This document shows, one piece after another, positions 2,955 to 35,853 of a stretch of 41,955 nt of DNA. The notes under the pieces were generated by a model, which was not told where the DNA came from, made no database searches, and worked only from the letters and a program-made list of their open reading frames with translations. Position numbers and translations under genes: made by a program. The stretch lies in the UHGV virus genome UHGV-0070165. One strand, written 5' to 3'. This stretch comes from a virus. How positions within the stretch are numbered: the stretch's first letter is position 1; each line of letters opens with the position of its first letter.

Positions 2955-3635
2955 TCATCGCCATTGCTCCCCAAATACAAAACCAATTTCAGCCAGTGCC
3001 TCGTCCATTTTTTCGATGAACTCCGGCACCATCTCGTTAAAACTCGCCATGTACTTTTCATCCCGCTCAACCACGACATAATGCAGTCCTTCACGCTTCA
3101 TACGCGGGTCATAGTTGGCAAAGTACCAGGCATCTTTTTGTGTCACCCACATGCTGTACTGCACCTGGGCCATGTAAGCCGATTTTATGGCCTCGAAACC
3201 ACCGAGCCGGAACTTCATGAAATCCCGGGAGGTAAACGGGCATTTCAGTTCAAGGCCGTTGCCGTCACTGCATAAACCATCGGGAGAGCAGGCGGTGCGC
3301 ATACTTTCGTCGCGATAGATGATCGGGGATTCAGTAACATTCACGCCGGAAGTGAACTCAAAGAGGGCTCTGGCGTCGTTCTCGTACTGTTTTCCCCAGG
3401 CCAGCGCCTTAGCGTTAACTTCCGGAGCCACACCGGTGCAAACCTCGGCAAGCAGGGTGTGGAAGTAGGACATTTTCATGTCAGGCCACTTCTTTCCGGA
3501 GCGGGGTTTTGCTATCACATTGTGAACTTCTGAAGCGGTGATGACGCCGAGCCGTAATTTGTGCCATGCATCATCCCCCTGTTCGACAGCTCTCACGTCG
3601 ATCCCGGTACGCTGCAGGATAATGTCCGGTGTCAT
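2955..3635 (-). CDS. exo: Lambda exonuclease (Red alpha)
   Basis: 226 aa; sequence recognised as near-identical to lambda Exo ([36 protein letters not shown]...). Confidence 0.95.
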
Positions 3636-4417
3636 GCTGCCACCTTCTGCTCAGTGGCTTTCTGTTTCAGGAATCCAAGAGCTTTCACTGCTTCGGCCTG
3701 TGTCAGTTCTGACGATGCGCGAATGTCGCGGCGAAATATCTGGGAACAGAGCGGCAATAAGTCGTCATCCCATGTTTTATCCAGGGCAATCAGCAGAGTG
3801 TTAATCTCCTGCATGGTTTCATCGTTAACCGGAGTGATGTCGCGTTCCGGCTGACGTTCTGCAGTGTATGCGGTATTTTCGACAATGCGCTCGGCTTCAT
3901 CCTTGTCATAGATACCAGCAAATCCGAAGGCCAGACGGGCACACTGAATCATGGCTTTATGCCGTAACATCCGTTTGGGATGCGACTGCCACGGTCCGGT
4001 GATTTCTCTGCCTTCGCGGGTTTTGAATGGTTCGCGGCGGCATTCATCCATCCACTCGGTAACGCAGATCGGATGATTGCGGTCTTTGCGGTAAATCCGG
4101 CATGTGCAGGATTCGTTGTCCTGTTCAAAGTCCATGCCGTCAAACTGCTGGTTTTCGTTGATGATGCGGGACCAGCCATCAACGCCCACCACCGGAACGA
4201 TGCCGTTCTGCTTATCAGGGAAGGCGTAAATTTCTTTCGTCCACGGATTAAGACCGTACTGGTTGGCGACGATCAGCAATGCGATGAACTGCGCATCGCT
4301 GGCATCACCTTTAAATGCCGTCTGGCGAAGAGTGGTGATCAGTTCCTGTGGGTCGACAGAATCCATGCCGACTCGTTCAGCCAGCTTCCCAGCCAGCGTT
4401 GCGAGTGCTGTACTCAT
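3632..4417 (-). CDS. bet: Lambda Beta single-strand annealing protein (Red beta)
   Basis: 261 aa; recognised as near-identical to lambda Bet; overlaps exo start by 4 nt. Confidence 0.95.
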
Positions 4418-4422
4418 CCGTT

Positions 4423-4719
4423 TTATACCTCTGAATCAATATCAACCTGGTGGTGAGCAATGGTTTCAACCATGTACCGGATGTGTTCCGCCATGCGCTC
4501 CTGAAACTCAACATCGTCATCAAATGCACGGGTAATGGCTTTTTTGCTGGCCCCGTGGCGTTGCAAATGATCGATGCATAGCGATTCAAACAGGTGCTGG
4601 GGCAGGCCTTTTTCCATGTCGTCTGCCAGTTCTGCCTCTTTCTCTTCACGGGCGATCTGCTGGTAGTGACGCGCCCAGCTCTGAGCCTCAAGACGATCCT
4701 GAATGTAATAAGCGTTCAT
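4423..4719 (-). CDS. gam: Gam, RecBCD inhibitor (98 aa GamS form)
   Basis: Sequence [21 protein letters not shown]... matches lambda GamS; in-frame stop codons lie upstream of the ATG. Confidence 0.9.
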
Positions 4720-4794
4720 GGCTGAACTCCTGAAAATGGCTGTGAAAATATCGCCCGCGAAATGCCGGGCTGATTAGGAAAACAGGAAAGGGGA

Positions 4795-5001
4795 TTAGTG
4801 ATTGAGGCCGTTACCGCGTCCGTCGAGAAAAACTTCCACGAGCAAATCACGGGTATAAGTGCGCTCGATGCCGCGATGCAGATAAAGCCGTCCGCGTAAA
4901 TTAGCTGATGCAGTCCAGGTACCATCTTTGTGTTTGACCAGCATGCCTGGCATGACCGCACCGCGATTAACGGTCTGCGTTCCGTAATGTTGATGAACCA
5001 T
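4795..5001 (-). CDS. Small hypothetical protein (68 aa) at the kil position; the longer tracked ORF begins with TTG and is probably not real
   Basis: ATG preceded by AGGAG at about 5 nt spacing; first gene downstream of the putative leftward promoter. Confidence 0.4.
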
Positions 5002-5278
5002 AAAAACTCCTGCCCGTAAGCTGGGCTGCTGAACATATAGAGACTTCTGCGCGTATTCAGGCGGTGGATGGCCGCCGGTTGTCATAACTAAGCCGCCTCG
5101 TTGAAGCGACTGAGGTATAAAGTGTTGTGTTGATTTCAGCTGGTCACACCGACGTTCACGCGTCCGTTTCACCCCTCGCACTCCCCGAAGCCTGCTGAAA
5201 TTCAAACTGCGGATCTAAGCGGTCATCGCAACGGTGAAACAGGTGGTTATCGTATCGTTGTGTCGTTGCGATGAATTT

Positions 5279-5352
5279 ATTTAAAACTATAGTTGTTTTA
5301 TCGTCAACAACAAAAGTTGTTTTATCGGTTGTTTTTAATATAACTGGTTGTA
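5279..5352 (-). promoter_or_regulatory. Putative leftward early promoter (pL-like) with operator repeats
   Basis: Minus strand reads TTGTTGTTGACG-17 nt-TTAAAT, closely resembling the rightward promoter TGGTTGTTGACT-17 nt-TAATCT; GTTGTT/AACAAC half-sites repeated, including the near-direct repeat AGTTGTTTTATCG at 5291-5304 and 5315-5328. Confidence 0.55.
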
Positions 5353-5442
5353 TTTAGGATGGATTTATTTTGTGACTTGCATCGCATAGCGATAACTGAA
5401 GTGAGGTGTGGTGGTTTTTTGGACGGTATGAGTTATGAGGGG

Positions 5443-5474
5443 GAGGAAAAGAAAACCCGGCGCGGTTGCCGGGT
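5443..5474 (-). terminator. Rho-independent terminator downstream of the lipoprotein gene
   Basis: On the minus strand, hairpin ACCCGGC-loop-GCCGGGT followed by TTTTCTTTTCC. Confidence 0.6.
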
Positions 5475-5481
5475 ATGATTA

Positions 5482-5862
5482 TCAGTCAGCCCAACCTGAT
5501 TTCGAGTTTATTTGGGTTTCTGACATTGTGTATTTCTTAATCGTGTCATCGTTAAAAAGAATAGTAAGTTCTTTTTTCGTACCGTTCGTTCCATTATGGA
5601 ATAATCCATAGAATGGAATAAAAGTGGTGCCATTCACTTTTACTTTTGCAAAGGCGTACTTCCAGATCTCGTTTCCACTGTCAGTATATGAAACAGCATC
5701 AGGAGAACCAAAGTAAGATTTAACCTCATTCTTGGTTGTTTTACCTTCCTGAAGTTTAGACTGGACACTAATTTCAGTTTCATTTTTGAGTTGCTGGTTG
5801 CCTGAAGAAGCACACCCAGCCAATACAGATGCCATCATGGCAGCGATTAGGATTTTTCTCAT
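5482..5862 (-). CDS. Predicted lipoprotein (signal peptide with LAGC lipobox)
   Basis: N-terminus MRKILIAAMMASVLAGC; TATAAT-like box about 20 nt upstream; own terminator downstream; lies downstream of cI where lambda carries rexAB. Confidence 0.7.
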   Translation of the reverse strand: MRKILIAAMMASVLAGCASSGNQQLKNETEISVQSKLQEGKTTKNEVKSYFGSPDAVSYTDSGNEIWKYAFAKVKVNGTTFIPFYGLFHNGTNGTKKELTILFNDDTIKKYTMSETQINSKSGWAD

Positions 5863-6091: not shown

Positions 6092-6781
6092 TTAACCATG
6101 CTTCCTGTACGTCTGCGGCATGCTTCCAATGACCTTACCGAATATGAACACCCGGTTCATCTCGTCTTTCTCGATCGGGTCCCACGGCGAGTAGCTCTTG
6201 TTATCAGAGATAACCAGCAGCTTATCCTTCATCATTTGAAGACGTTTTACATGGGCAGTGTCGTCGTACAGAAACGCATAGATGCCATCACCGTCGAAAG
6301 ATTTAACAGTGATATCAACGAACAGCAGGTCACCTGGTTCGATCGTCCCTGACATGCTGTCACCTCGCACGTTAATGATGCGGATATTTTCCGCCTTCCT
6401 GCCATCGAACATGTGACGAGCATCGTCAAACGAGTACTCAACCGAGCGTAGAACTTCTACAAACTCACGGTTGATTACACCTGGCCCGGCACTGACTTCT
6501 ATATCAAGAACGTCAATTTTGAAGTATTTGGAATGGCTGACAGTTGATTGTATTGGTTGCACTGTACTGTCTGACATATTTCCAACGCCAGAAGATAACC
6601 ATTCTGCGCGTACACCCAAAGCGTTCGCGATCTCCACGATTTTAGTTGTTTGGTTAGCTTTCCCTGTTTCGATTTTCTGAATAGCAGCCTGGCTAACCCC
6701 GACCAAATCCCCAAGCGCCTTTTGTGTAAGGCCTCGCGCTAATCTGGCTTCTTTAAGTCTTTCTGAGAGTGTTGTTTTCAT
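6092..6781 (-). CDS. cI: CI-type prophage repressor (N-terminal HTH, C-terminal LexA-like S24 autopeptidase)
   Basis: 229 aa; HTH near LTQKALGDLVGVSQAAIQKIE; Ala-Gly cleavage site (SAGPG); Ser (GDSM) and Lys (VKRL) catalytic dyad motifs; divergent from cro. Confidence 0.85.
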   Translation of the reverse strand: MKTTLSERLKEARLARGLTQKALGDLVGVSQAAIQKIETGKANQTTKIVEIANALGVRAEWLSSGVGNMSDSTVQPIQSTVSHSKYFKIDVLDIEVSAGPGVINREFVEVLRSVEYSFDDARHMFDGRKAENIRIINVRGDSMSGTIEPGDLLFVDITVKSFDGDGIYAFLYDDTAHVKRLQMMKDKLLVISDNKSYSPWDPIEKDEMNRVFIFGKVIGSMPQTYRKHG

Positions 6782-6822
6782 AGATCAAATGTACAACCAA
6801 GGTTTTATTTCATCAAACGAAA

Positions 6823-6858
6823 ATGGTTGTTGACTAAAAACAACCATAGTTTTAATCT
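6823..6858 (+). promoter_or_regulatory. Rightward promoter (pR-like) with overlapping operator palindrome
   Basis: ATGGTTGTT-GACTAAA-AACAACCAT is a perfect 9 bp inverted repeat overlapping TTGACT (-35); TAATCT lies 17 nt downstream; sits between cI and cro. Confidence 0.6.
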
Positions 6859-6885
6859 TGATTCGGATTAACCGCGGAGGTTGTT

Positions 6886-7116
6886 ATGAACCCAGCAATC
6901 AAAACAGCGATCAATATCGTTGGTTCACAAAAGAAACTAGGCGATGCCTGCGAAGTTTCACAGCAGGCCGTCTATAAGTGGCTTCACAACAAAGCAAAGG
7001 TATCCCCTGAACATGTCGGCAGCATTGTTACGGCTACTGGTGGAGTTGTGAAGGCATACCAGATTCGCCCGGATCTTCCGAAGTTGTTTCCACACACCGA
7101 AAAGAACGCAGCTTAA
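6886..7116 (+). CDS. cro: Cro-like HTH repressor
   Basis: 76 aa; GGAGG Shine-Dalgarno; HTH (QKKLGDACEVSQQAVYKW); transcribed divergently from cI. Confidence 0.8.
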   Translation: MNPAIKTAINIVGSQKKLGDACEVSQQAVYKWLHNKAKVSPEHVGSIVTATGGVVKAYQIRPDLPKLFPHTEKNAA

Positions 7117-7128
7117 ATTTCCATTTCA

Positions 7129-7141
7129 CGCTCTTTAACAA
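7129..7141 (+). promoter_or_regulatory. boxA-like element (rrn-type consensus) at the nutR position
   Basis: CGCTCTTTAACAA, 12 nt after the cro stop, matches the recalled rrn/lambdoid boxA consensus GCTCTTTAACAA; no obvious boxB hairpin follows. Confidence 0.45.
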
Positions 7142-7185
7142 TAAGCAATCAACTTAACAGTCAATTCAAACTAAAGGAGTCAATT

Positions 7186-7725
7186 ATGCAACCACTTACA
7201 TACCAACAGACTAGCGAATTTATTCCGACTGCGGTGATAAATCGTTCTCAAACAAAACAAGCTCCAGGCCACGAAAAAATCCGTGATGCCGTCCGCGCCT
7301 GGTCGGCTGTAGATAATCAGGATGTCGTTGCCGCACTCATTGTGAATGAGTATCGGGAGCAGGGCGACGGCACCATCGATTTCCCTGATGATGTCAGCCG
7401 TGCACGCCAGAAGCTGTTCCGCTTCCTCGATAACAAATTCGATTCTGAAAAATACCGAAATAACGTGCGTGAACTGACCCCGGCAATTCTGGCGGTACTA
7501 CCGCTGGAATATCGCGGTTACCTGGTTGAGCTGGATAGCTTCATGACTCGGTTGGCTGAAATGGAAAAGGAACTCAGTGAGGCAAAACAGGCTGTCATTC
7601 TCAACGCACCACGCCACCAGAAACTGAAGGAAATGAGTGAAGGTATTGTGTCGATGTTTCGTGTGGACCCGGATCTGGCTGGTCCATTAATGGCGATGGT
7701 GACCACCATGCTGGGGGCAATATGA
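7186..7725 (+). CDS. YdaT-like protein occupying the cII position
   Basis: 179 aa; AAGGAG Shine-Dalgarno; segment ELTPAILAVLPLEYRGYL resembles the Rac prophage YdaT family as recalled. Confidence 0.5.
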   Translation: MQPLTYQQTSEFIPTAVINRSQTKQAPGHEKIRDAVRAWSAVDNQDVVAALIVNEYREQGDGTIDFPDDVSRARQKLFRFLDNKFDSEKYRNNVRELTPAILAVLPLEYRGYLVELDSFMTRLAEMEKELSEAKQAVILNAPRHQKLKEMSEGIVSMFRVDPDLAGPLMAMVTTMLGAI

Positions 7726-11919: not shown

Positions 11920-12383
11920 ATAATGATCTCGGATTTTAAGTTATGCTATGGTGATAAAGTGCAAGACAGAATTAATTATCTTTGACGAAACTTAATGGGT
12001 AATTACTTTGTTTGCTCCCACAAGCGAGTTTTGTACGGCTGTATTGGGGTAGTAAATGAGCTATACAATCTTAATCATTTGTTAGGTGAGAACTCTTGGT
12101 CGCAGATTCAAATACTGAAAATACGTGACAAATTATTATGAGCAAAATGGTGTATGTCACGTATTTTGAATGGTAGGTTAAAAAATAACACCGACTTTCG
12201 TAGGTATTACTAATAATAAAGCAGAGTTTTTAGATAGTATCAATGTGCTTTGTGTATATTGTGGCAAATAATTGGGTTGGGGGTACAATTGTGATTGCTT
12301 TTGCATGAACATTGCGCCTTTATGCATAATGAGATAAAGGAATATCAAATAAAATAACGATAGGTCATAACAAAGAGGTTTTT

Positions 12384-12935
12384 ATGAAAACACTTATCGT
12401 TTCAACTGTATTGGCATTCATAACATTTTCTGCGCAGGCTGCAGCATTTCAGGTCACTAGTAATGAAATAAAAACAGGAGAGCAACTTACAACGTCTCAT
12501 GTCTTTTCTGGATTTGGGTGTGAAGGTGGTAATACATCGCCCTCATTAACCTGGTCTGGTGTTCCTGAAGGTACCAAAAGCTTTGCCGTAACTGTATATG
12601 ATCCAGATGCACCTACAGGCAGTGGTTGGTGGCATTGGACTGTTGTTAATATTCCAGCAACAGTAACATATTTGCCCGTTGATGCAGGGAGACGTGATGG
12701 AACAAAACTGCCGACTGGTGCTGTTCAAGGCCGAAATGATTTTGGCTATGCTGGGTTTGGTGGCGCATGTCCTCCTAAAGGAGATAAACCACATCATTAC
12801 CAGTTTAAAGTATGGGCTCTAAAAACTGAAAAGATTCCTGTAGATTCTAACTCCAGCGGAGCGTTAGTTGGTTATATGCTTAATGCTAATAAAATCGCAA
12901 CCGCTGAGATAACACCAGTTTATGAGATAAAGTAG
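12384..12935 (+). CDS. ybcL: Secreted PEBP/RKIP-family (YbhB/YbcL) protein
   Basis: 183 aa; signal peptide ending AQA; recognised as DLP12 YbcL. Confidence 0.85.
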   Translation: MKTLIVSTVLAFITFSAQAAAFQVTSNEIKTGEQLTTSHVFSGFGCEGGNTSPSLTWSGVPEGTKSFAVTVYDPDAPTGSGWWHWTVVNIPATVTYLPVDAGRRDGTKLPTGAVQGRNDFGYAGFGGACPPKGDKPHHYQFKVWALKTEKIPVDSNSSGALVGYMLNANKIATAEITPVYEIK

Positions 12936-19062: not shown

Positions 19063-19551
19063 ATGAACCAATTAGAAGAAAAGCTTCAAAGAATGATTTC
19101 CTTATACAAGGAAGATAACTGCCAAAAAGTTCCTGAAAACATCGCAGAGTTAATGGAATTGGCAAGTGAATTTTCTGGCATGCTTAAGTCGTCAGGTGTT
19201 CGGTCAGCGTTCTTTGTTGAAATGCTGATGCACGGCGGACTTATGGCAACAATGAGACGTGTAATGGAAGACCAGAGAAAAGAACCTCCTCAGGTATACG
19301 TTTTGTCATCGAAGAAAACTGGGCTAACCAAAATTGGGTATTCATCCAACATTCCACAACGCATCAAATCGCTTGGCAACTCTGGACCAGACTGCTTGAA
19401 GCTTGAGTGCCTGATCCCTGGTGGAAGAGAAACTGAAAACATGCTTCATCGCAAATTTGCCGCAAAGAGAAAGCACGGTGAATGGTTCGCCCTGTCCAAG
19501 GATGACATTGAGGGATTGAAATCTGTAGCGATTACTTCTGATGGCTATTAA
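19063..19551 (+). CDS. T5orf172 (GIY-YIG-like) domain protein; start set at MNQLEEK
   Basis: C-terminal segment VYVLSSKKTGLTKIGYSSNIPQRIKSL...HRKFAAKRKHGEWFALSKDD fits the recalled T5orf172 pattern. Confidence 0.55.
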   Translation: MNQLEEKLQRMISLYKEDNCQKVPENIAELMELASEFSGMLKSSGVRSAFFVEMLMHGGLMATMRRVMEDQRKEPPQVYVLSSKKTGLTKIGYSSNIPQRIKSLGNSGPDCLKLECLIPGGRETENMLHRKFAAKRKHGEWFALSKDDIEGLKSVAITSDGY

Positions 19552-20978: not shown

Positions 20979-21155
20979 CGCGGGTTTTCGCTATTTATGA
21001 AAATTTTCCGGTTTAAGGTGTTTCCGTTCTTCTTCGTCGTAACTTAATGTTTTTATTTAAAATACCCCCTGAAAAGAAAGGAAACGACAGGTGCTGAAAA
21101 CGGGCTTTTTGGCCTCTGTCGTTTCCTTTCTCTGTTTTTGTCCGTGGAATGAACA

Positions 21156-35109: not shown

Positions 35110-35853
35110 ATGACACAGACAGAATCAGCGATTCTGGCGCACGCCCGGCGATGTGCGCCAGCGGAGTCGTGCGGCTTCGTGGTAAGCACGCCGGAGGGGG
35201 AAAGATATTTCCCCTGCGTGAATATCTCCGGTGAGCCGGAGGCGTATTTCCGTATGTCGCCGGAGGACTGGCTGCAGGCAGAAATGCAGGGTGAGATTGT
35301 GGCGCTGGTCCACAGCCACCCCGGTGGTCTGCCCTGGCTGAGTGAGACTGACCGGCGGCTGCAGGTGCAGAGTGATTTGCCGTGGTGGCTGGTCTGCCGG
35401 GGGGCGATTCATAAGTTCCGCTGTGTGCCGCATCTCACCGGACGGCGCTTTGAGCACGGGGTGACGGACTGTTACACGCTGTTCCGGGATGCTTATCATC
35501 TGGCGGGGATTGAGATGCCGGATTTTCATCGCGAGGATGACTGGTGGCGTCACGGTCAGAATCTCTATCTGGATAATCTGGAGGCCACAGGGCTGTATCA
35601 GGTGCCGTTGTCATCAGCACAACCGGGCGATGTGCTGCTGTGCTGTTTTGGTTCATCGGTGCCGAATCATGCCGCCATTTACTGTGGTGATGGCGAGCTG
35701 CTGCACCATATTCCTGAACAACTGAGCAAACGAGAGAGGTATACCGACAAATGGCAGCGACGCATACACTCCCTCTGGCGTCACCGGGCATGGCGCGCAT
35801 CTGCCTTTACGGGGATTTGCAACGATTTGGCCGCCGCATCGACCTTCGTGTGA
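35110..35853 (+). CDS. K: Tail tip assembly protein K
   Basis: 247 aa ORF; recognised as lambda gpK-like. Confidence 0.85.
   Translation: MTQTESAILAHARRCAPAESCGFVVSTPEGERYFPCVNISGEPEAYFRMSPEDWLQAEMQGEIVALVHSHPGGLPWLSETDRRLQVQSDLPWWLVCRGAIHKFRCVPHLTGRRFEHGVTDCYTLFRDAYHLAGIEMPDFHREDDWWRHGQNLYLDNLEATGLYQVPLSSAQPGDVLLCCFGSSVPNHAAIYCGDGELLHHIPEQLSKRERYTDKWQRRIHSLWRHRAWRASAFTGICNDLAAASTFV

Follow-up and report, generated by a model that had tools for sequence, protein, structure and literature searches.

In phage lambda, N is the first gene of the pL operon, and the site on which it acts, nutL with its boxA and boxB, occupies the first part of the pL transcript, between +1 and +75. The leader of lambda N also regulates N translation, and is mentioned in this connection in PMC5725501. 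HK022 (putL and putR) and HK639 (putL) lack N and instead carry a promoter-proximal RNA at or near +1 of the pL transcript, and in HK022 the second element, putR, is found in the rightward operon. The put RNAs consist of two adjacent stem-loops of about 70-72 nt, with conserved internal loops and bulges. Lambdoid phages that lack N are usually assumed to use put-like RNAs. A quite different role is known for 5'-terminal stem-loops in E. coli, where they stabilise mRNAs, as studies of the ompA leader, RNase E and RppH have established. A put-like RNA was assumed for phage LLS in a recent genome paper (PMC12315714), and a transcription assay for put action, involving the beta' zinc-binding domain and the suppression of pausing and termination in cis, has been described (PMC9378689).

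The DNA analysed here, UHGV-0070165 (41,955 nt; the whole stretch is called the window below), is a complete lambdoid prophage of the DLP12-like, Bievrevirus-like, lambda-like E. coli type. Its nearest named relatives are the Escherichia phages PhiR26_1, 4A7 and Perceval of the genus Bievrevirus, and PhiR26_1 is 99.3% identical to the window across positions 4700-5500. The gene order runs from int (50-1213) through exo, bet and gam (2955-4719) and kil (4795-5001) to a gene for a BamE-like lipoprotein (5482-5862), cI (6092-6781), a YdaS-type cro (6886-7116) and a gene for a YdaT-type, CII-like protein (7186-7725), which is followed by O, P, ren and emrE and then by DLP12-like late genes. An intrinsic terminator at 5455-5474 on the minus strand (7 pairs, 6 of them G-C, with the tail TTTCTTTTCC) marks the end of the cI-lipoprotein transcript just upstream of pL; it is also the boundary at which homology to phages with other inserted accessory genes stops. 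Between this terminator and the left operator lies a palindrome, ATCGCATAGCGAT (5384-5396), whose ATCGC/GCGAT ends recur in the hairpin arms described below; it is conserved in immunity regions of the window type and the 4A7 type.

The region from 5352 down to 5002 is the early leftward promoter-operator (pL/oL) followed by an untranslated leader of 270 nt. The pL hexamers, as read from the minus strand, are TTGACG at -35 (5302-5307) and TTAAAT at -10 (5279-5284), separated by a 17-nt spacer. The oL repeats extend over 5285-5345, with GTTGTT/AACAAC half-sites and two copies of GTTGTTTTATCG, and are recognised both as direct repeats and by their inverted matches to the pR/oR region at 6812-6855. 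The earlier note had proposed a leftward promoter here as a mirror of pR, and the inverted matches bear this out: 5281-5299 and 6837-6855 are 95% complementary, further inverted arms tie 5297-5337 to 6812-6851, and the -35 hexamer of pL falls inside the mirrored stretch. The pR promoter itself (TTGACT ... TTAATC/TAATCT, 6830-6858, plus strand) is identified by its sequence as well as by these matches. The pL transcript very probably begins AUCGCAACG... at A5272, the A of a CATC motif. This is the seventh base past the -10 hexamer, and in an alignment the mapped pL start of lambda (ATCAGCAGG, record position 35582) is its counterpart within the common CATC motif. A start at A5272 would place the 5' end of the RNA two bases inside the 5' arm of an inverted repeat, in agreement with the suggestion that the transcript starts within that repeat.

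The first gene of the pL operon in the window is not N but kil, which encodes a 68-aa protein (4795-5001, minus strand; phrog_294, E 1e-37) named 'phage encoded cell division inhibitor protein' in RefSeq. This Kil homologue is the sole ORF between pL and gam, where the earlier note had likewise seen no N-like ORF. No N or Nun homologue was found in any frame. When five N and Nun proteins (lambda N, phi80 N and HK022 Nun taken from records, together with P22 N and phi21 N) were compared by phmmer with the 769 six-frame ORFs of the window, nothing scored better than E 0.13, and a Pfam search also returned nothing. One candidate for a hidden N was an arginine-rich, 136-aa extended ORF (4795-5205, minus strand) that shares the kil frame. 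It was rejected because the extension is non-coding by the pattern of polymorphism and indels: among 66 distinct relatives its polymorphisms are distributed 11/8/8 over codon positions 1/2/3, as compared to 0/0/all in kil, and relatives carry +1, +5 and -1 indels in the part upstream of kil. Nucleotide diversity in kil itself is 0/0/0.047 at the three codon positions. The annotated length of kil differs between records (125 aa in PhiR26_1, 139 aa in Perceval, 68 aa in RefSeq); since only the 68-aa form behaves as coding sequence, the longer annotations are likely errors.

The predicted pL transcript opens with a stem-loop at its 5' terminus (5223-5274, minus strand), in which the arms 5274-5264 and 5233-5223 enclose a 30-nt loop and positions 5273-5265 pair with 5232-5224 to give a conserved 9-bp core. 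The two arms, TCATCGCAACG (5223-5233) and CGTTGCGATGA (5264-5274), form an exact 11-bp inverted repeat 30 nt apart, just as had been described. With the start predicted from the sequence, the stem would leave zero to two unpaired 5' nucleotides. Folding of the minus-strand RNA gives -17.5 kcal/mol (z = -2.6 against dinucleotide shuffles, one of 200 of which folds as well), and the core pairs have probabilities of 0.35-0.84 in the ensemble of the whole leader. The repeat alone is not significant, because a perfect 11-bp repeat with a loop of at most 40 nt is present in 22% of windows after mononucleotide shuffling; the case for the stem-loop rests instead on its position and conservation. A covariance model of the hairpin finds one copy in the window, at 82 bits. 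The next match, at 17 bits inside bet, was dismissed as a second copy since there is no comparable stem there, and the same scan of the window found no second copy in the pR operon. A reading of the opposite strand as a terminator (the stem followed by ATTTATTT) was also discarded, as the T-run is the -10 hexamer of pL and is missing in other immunity types.

Apart from this one, the window has just two perfect inverted repeats with short loops and 11 bp or more, at 21075-21131 and 12118-12167. The former has 16-bp arms and is located just upstream of the likely start of the small-terminase gene; by analogy with the lambda left end we take it to be the cosB-like region before nu1, which is ordinary. 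The latter has 13-bp arms and a 24-nt loop and is intergenic, before an ORF at 12384. Searches for a described counterpart of the pL element gave nothing: Rfam 15 had no match at gathering score anywhere in the window, with chance-level matches alone in 4700-5500 and 6780-7300, and the sequence of the element was not found in the papers searched. The small RNA svsR of NC-SV prophages was set aside, since it sits at the 3' end of cI and not at pL.

The stem-loop had been proposed, as a hypothesis, to be a put-like RNA element or another regulatory structure of the leader. A put covariance model was built from an alignment of 28 elements taken from viral contigs, HK022 and HK639, and it scores 90-97 bits for putL and 47-50 bits for putR on true put phages. 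Run on the window with filters off, the model gave a best match of E 0.39 at 19213 and none in the pL or pR leaders; across 48 loci related through Kil, only the HK639 control matched, at 90 bits. Pairwise alignment of the hairpin with four put RNAs was no better than with shuffles, and the put consensus (GAACGGCGCG ... AAACCAUGCGUCGG ... GGCGGG ... CGGCAAU) has no match in the window. In the absence of both a model match and an alignment signal, the element does not belong to the put family. The comparison of folds leads to the same answer, as the window has a single stem with a large, variable loop of 30-38 nt in place of the two conserved stems of put, and its loop is free to change while the put alignment has 22 invariant columns. 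The proposal thus holds for position only: the element lies at the start of the pL transcript (its stem at about +1) in a phage that has no N, in the slot of nutL and putL and with terminator-like sites downstream. It fails for sequence and structure, in that there is no model match, one stem rather than two, no copy in the right operon such as HK022 has, and a 5' arm that is shared with phi80 and HK639. In sum, the stem-loop of the window is neither a member of the put family nor a nut site. Furthermore, none of the 75 loci with put and the 197 with the window hairpin has both. Some put phages do combine RNA-only with Nus-factor elements: in locus L191 (1202-1260, plus strand) put stem I is fused straight to a consensus boxA (..GCGTCGGAACCGCTCTTTAACAATCTGG..), and L136 pairs a left-hand putL with a right-hand boxA after cro.

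The behaviour of the stem-loop among relatives was judged from 22 distinct hairpin variants, which stand for about 200 loci. Each pair of the nine-pair core is a standard pair in 20 or more of the 22, and the perfect 11 bp are specific to the window, the relatives keeping 9 bp only. At two pairs in the base of the stem the changes are C to U and A to G alone, giving G-U pairs that can form only in RNA. The top pair passes through G-C, A.C and A-U across the variants, and the bottom pair is not kept. Core pairs are broken in few variants (A.G, U.U and A.C, in one or two variants each). The loop is 30 nt long, or 38 nt in L274 and L278, where it is 8 nt longer, and in the L042/O157 type its sequence is unrelated. 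The sequence from the transcript start to kil is common to relatives with three unrelated promoter-operator regions, and in a wider sample with five (the window type, the 4A7 type, the L042/O157 type, L274 and L278); in all five contexts the base of the stem lies 5 nt past the -10 hexamer, so that the predicted 5' end would be paired or within 2 nt of the stem. Nucleotide diversity is 0.008-0.013 in the arms, 0.036 in the loop and 0.047 at third positions of kil. Of the cells in the alignment of the variants, 87% are paired, and G-U-compatible changes occur along with one path from G-C to A-U; this level of pairing is not above shuffles. The covariation was likewise not significant, the observed score being reached by 361 of 500 shuffles of the 22 variants, because the 3' arm hardly varies.

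These patterns bear on whether the repeat acts as DNA or as RNA. As DNA, it could offer two half-sites just downstream of pL to a DNA-binding protein of the phage or the host, and it is indeed a perfect palindrome in the window, with a second palindrome of ATCGC/GCGAT ends nearby at 5384-5396. However, the transitions seen among relatives keep the RNA pairs and break the DNA symmetry, the outer pairs and the top one are not kept, and the change of 8 bp in arm spacing in L274 and L278 argues against a two-half-site target, so that a DNA-binding site seems highly improbable. The retention of pairing while the loop varies appears to favour an RNA stem over a DNA site, although it does not amount to proof.

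The same observations can be set against the idea that the repeat has no function of its own, being a by-product of the junction between the immunity and recombination modules that has been kept only for the youth of the block. The mosaic junction does coincide exactly with the transcript start or fall within the loop, identity downstream of it is 90% or more in all copies, the covariation is not significant, and chance yields an 11-bp repeat often enough. A mere by-product would nonetheless have to account for five unrelated promoters joined in the same register, for diverged 5' arms that keep their pairing through G-U-compatible changes, for arms 3-4 times less variable than the loop, and for 5' hairpins of different sequence that recur at the same position in other genera (see below). 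On balance a functionless repeat is improbable.

The 5' arm has a wider distribution than the stem as a whole. The first 20 nt of the predicted transcript (AUCGCAACGACACAACGAUA) are identical at 17 of 20 positions to the starts of the phi80 and HK639 pL transcripts (p < 0.002), whose 5' ends (AUCGAAACGAAACAUCGAUAG) begin with CAUCG as that of the window does. In each of these RNAs the very 5' end can fold into a hairpin, with different partners. In phi80 and HK639, AUCGA pairs with a nearby UCGAU to give a mini-hairpin of 5 bp with a 9-nt loop, whereas in the window the same 5' bases pair over 9 bp with the distant CGUUGCGAU, a 3' arm that is exclusive to these E. coli prophages. Downstream of the mini-hairpin lie nutL and N in phi80 and put in HK639. 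The 5' hairpin therefore coexists with either system, and is a feature separate from, and older than, the antitermination site.

The rest of the leader leads back to lambda. The segment at 5144-5197 (minus strand, CAGCAGGCTTCGGGGAGTG...) is homologous to the lambda N leader from +75 to +127 (local alignment, z = 4.5 against shuffles, with a further alignment in agreement), and it starts at transcript position 76-78 or so, as compared to about +75 in lambda; motifs related to this segment follow put in HK639 and other put phages. Further down is a 9-bp hairpin, AGUCGCUUC-AAC-GAGGCGGCU (5091-5111, minus strand); in locus L108 it and the next hairpin, GGCGG..CCGCC, come immediately after put. The translation-initiation region of kil (5006-5031, minus strand) is similar to the Shine-Dalgarno region of lambda N (..AGCTTACGGGCAGGAG), in an alignment that is weak when taken alone (z = 1.3). 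The homology of the segment and the likeness of the ribosome sites together point to an N-type leader in which kil occupies the position of N and the hairpin that of nutL, and the window leader descends from the same stock as that of lambda N. The elements through which N acts are missing from it: the minus strand of 5000-5280 contains no boxA even with up to 3 mismatches allowed, and the folds of the pL leader contain no boxB-type hairpin (5-bp stem, 5-nt loop). The RfaH ops element was not found in the leader either.

This ancestry gives some weight to a third explanation, in which the leader regulates the toxic kil gene, either as a site for a protein or small RNA or through the loop, C-rich and poor in G, serving as a Rho entry site that attenuates transcription. 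The leader of lambda N is itself a regulator of translation, and the 270 untranslated nucleotides are under constraint, with a diversity of 0.007-0.03 as compared to 0.047-0.051 at third codon positions. The long helix of the RNase III type found in lambda has no convincing equivalent in the window, however: the duplex there reaches -24.7 kcal/mol as compared to a shuffle mean of -24.0 (p = 0.41), and those of lambda and of Citrobacter relatives, used for comparison, reach -31.5 and -35.3 kcal/mol. The loop sequence, moreover, is not conserved between variants and has no known partner. Control of kil by the leader is thus quite unlikely.

In the right operon, a consensus boxA (CGCTCTTTAACAA, 7129-7141, plus strand) lies 13 nt past the stop codon of cro, in the position of nutR, and is the only boxA match without mismatch in the window. 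It is conserved in at least 62 related loci, and no boxB follows it. At this same position, where lambda has nutR, locus L176 has putR, which is also present in three other put phages. The boxA may serve the pR operon as an N-independent site for Nus factors that counteracts Rho.

The absence of N and put raises the question of how transcription from pL would pass the terminator-like hairpins that lie on the minus strand between pL and xis/int, at 4753-4770, 2872-2894 and 2281-2299. The first of these is in a stretch 96% identical to the lambda kil-gam region, and the last is strong, with 8 pairs and the tail TTTTATTGTT. One answer would be that the hairpin, alone or with the leader that follows it, is a new cis-acting processive antiterminator RNA that replaces nutL and N, or put, such that RNA polymerase would be modified once the hairpin is made and would read through the left operon to gam, bet, exo, xis and int. 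The location is suggestive, since the hairpin fills the interval from +1 to +75 that holds nutL in lambda and homologous leader sequence resumes at about +75 in both phages. Loci that carry put make the same point: in L176, behind a nearly identical pL -10 (CTATAGTTTTAAAT) and with a Cro that is 69% identical, putL occupies +1 and putR directly follows cro, and in L108 put is joined straight to the downstream part of a window-type leader. The mutual exclusion of put and the hairpin would also be expected if one substitutes for the other.

The N-less prophages of other genera in which Kil comes first have different cassettes, H1 to H4, in the same pL slot. H1 is a hairpin (CATC-GACAAC-AAGCGCAGC-GTTGTC) at +1 of pL in L353, L360, L345, L088 and some 40 further loci; in enterobacterial prophages at least 12 different promoter-operator regions lead into it, and the same conserved leader (GTTCCGCCAGCCTGGCGACAAGG...) comes after it. 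H2 and H4 are two more cassettes in the slot of H1. H3, a structured element some 80 nt long (..ACCACC.AGGCAGGACGCCCACGAAGTAGCCGTCCGGGGCATACGAAGACCGGAATGAGGTGGTGAGATTAAC..), opens the pL transcript in N-less, Kil-first prophages; it occurs just downstream of pL in L092, L340, L347, L350, L375 and about 50 other viral contigs. Its outer helix covaries, from ACCACC/GGTGGT to GTCATC/GATGAC, and neither Rfam nor the put model matches it, which together make it a candidate for a new RNA family.

Such cassettes, among them H3 with its covarying helix, count in favour of an antiterminator in this slot. Set against it for the window hairpin are the freedom of the loop sequence (as in the L042 type) where put has invariant columns, the plainness of a single stem, the presence of boxA in place of a second copy in the pR operon, and a 5' arm that is common to phages with their own N or put, together with the lack of detectable put similarity. 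That the hairpin is such an antiterminator is therefore, in our estimate, unlikely. A broader version would treat the pL slot from +1 to about +75 as a site of interchangeable cassettes, each a cis-acting RNA that renders RNA polymerase resistant to termination, with nutL, put, the window hairpin and H1 to H3 (of Citrobacter-, Klebsiella- and Enterobacter-type prophages) as alternatives, and with the window hairpin as a new protein-independent early antiterminator paired with a boxA-only site on the right; this general scheme we consider rather unlikely.

The most economical mechanism, held tentatively and at somewhat less than an even chance, would be that the element is a 5'-terminal protective stem-loop on an N-type leader that lacks N. 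According to this model, the transcript would start at A5272 and fold at once through the 9-bp conserved core (11 bp in the window) with its loop of 30-38 nt. Burial of the 5' end in the stem would hinder both RppH and the 5'-end-dependent attack of RNase E, and the long untranslated early message would thereby be stabilised. The greater age of the 5' hairpin as compared to the antitermination site, its single copy and its absence from the pR operon all count for this protective role. So do the fixed distance from the -10 hexamer in five promoter contexts, the tendency of the pairing to be kept while the loop changes, and arms that vary less than the loop or the third positions of kil. Several points do not fit easily. 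The covariation is not significant, and core pairs are disrupted in a few variants; with the related H1 hairpin of other genera, about 3 nucleotides would stay unpaired; the position is precisely that of nutL and putL; and with neither N nor put, protection of the message would leave the passage of the terminator-like sites at 4770-4753, 2894-2872 and 2299-2281 unexplained.

The question reaches well beyond one prophage. The 81-nt hairpin region is matched in 2,210 of 5,426 complete E. coli genomes (about 40%), with nothing annotated there, and the lineage includes the viable phages 4A7, Perceval and PhiR26_1. A very common lineage of E. coli prophages thus has neither N nor put, which makes delayed-early expression past terminators a general and directly testable question. 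The element is short and well defined, and nature supplies ready-made controls in five promoter fusions and several variants of the arms. Readthrough conferred by the hairpin or the neighbouring leader would amount, in lambdoid phages, to a third kind of early antitermination; a hairpin that does no more than stabilise the message would be a modest addition to the biology of phage leaders.

Among known systems, then, the window resembles lambda in the architecture of its leader, with a hairpin in the +1 to +75 slot where lambda has nutL, and differs from it on the left side in having kil first and neither N, boxA nor a boxB-type hairpin. With the ompA type of leader it would share a stem placed no more than 2 nt from the predicted 5' end, pairing that seems to be kept while the loop varies, and a long untranslated leader that follows. 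It departs from that type in the unusually large loop and in a placement within the antitermination slot of related phages.
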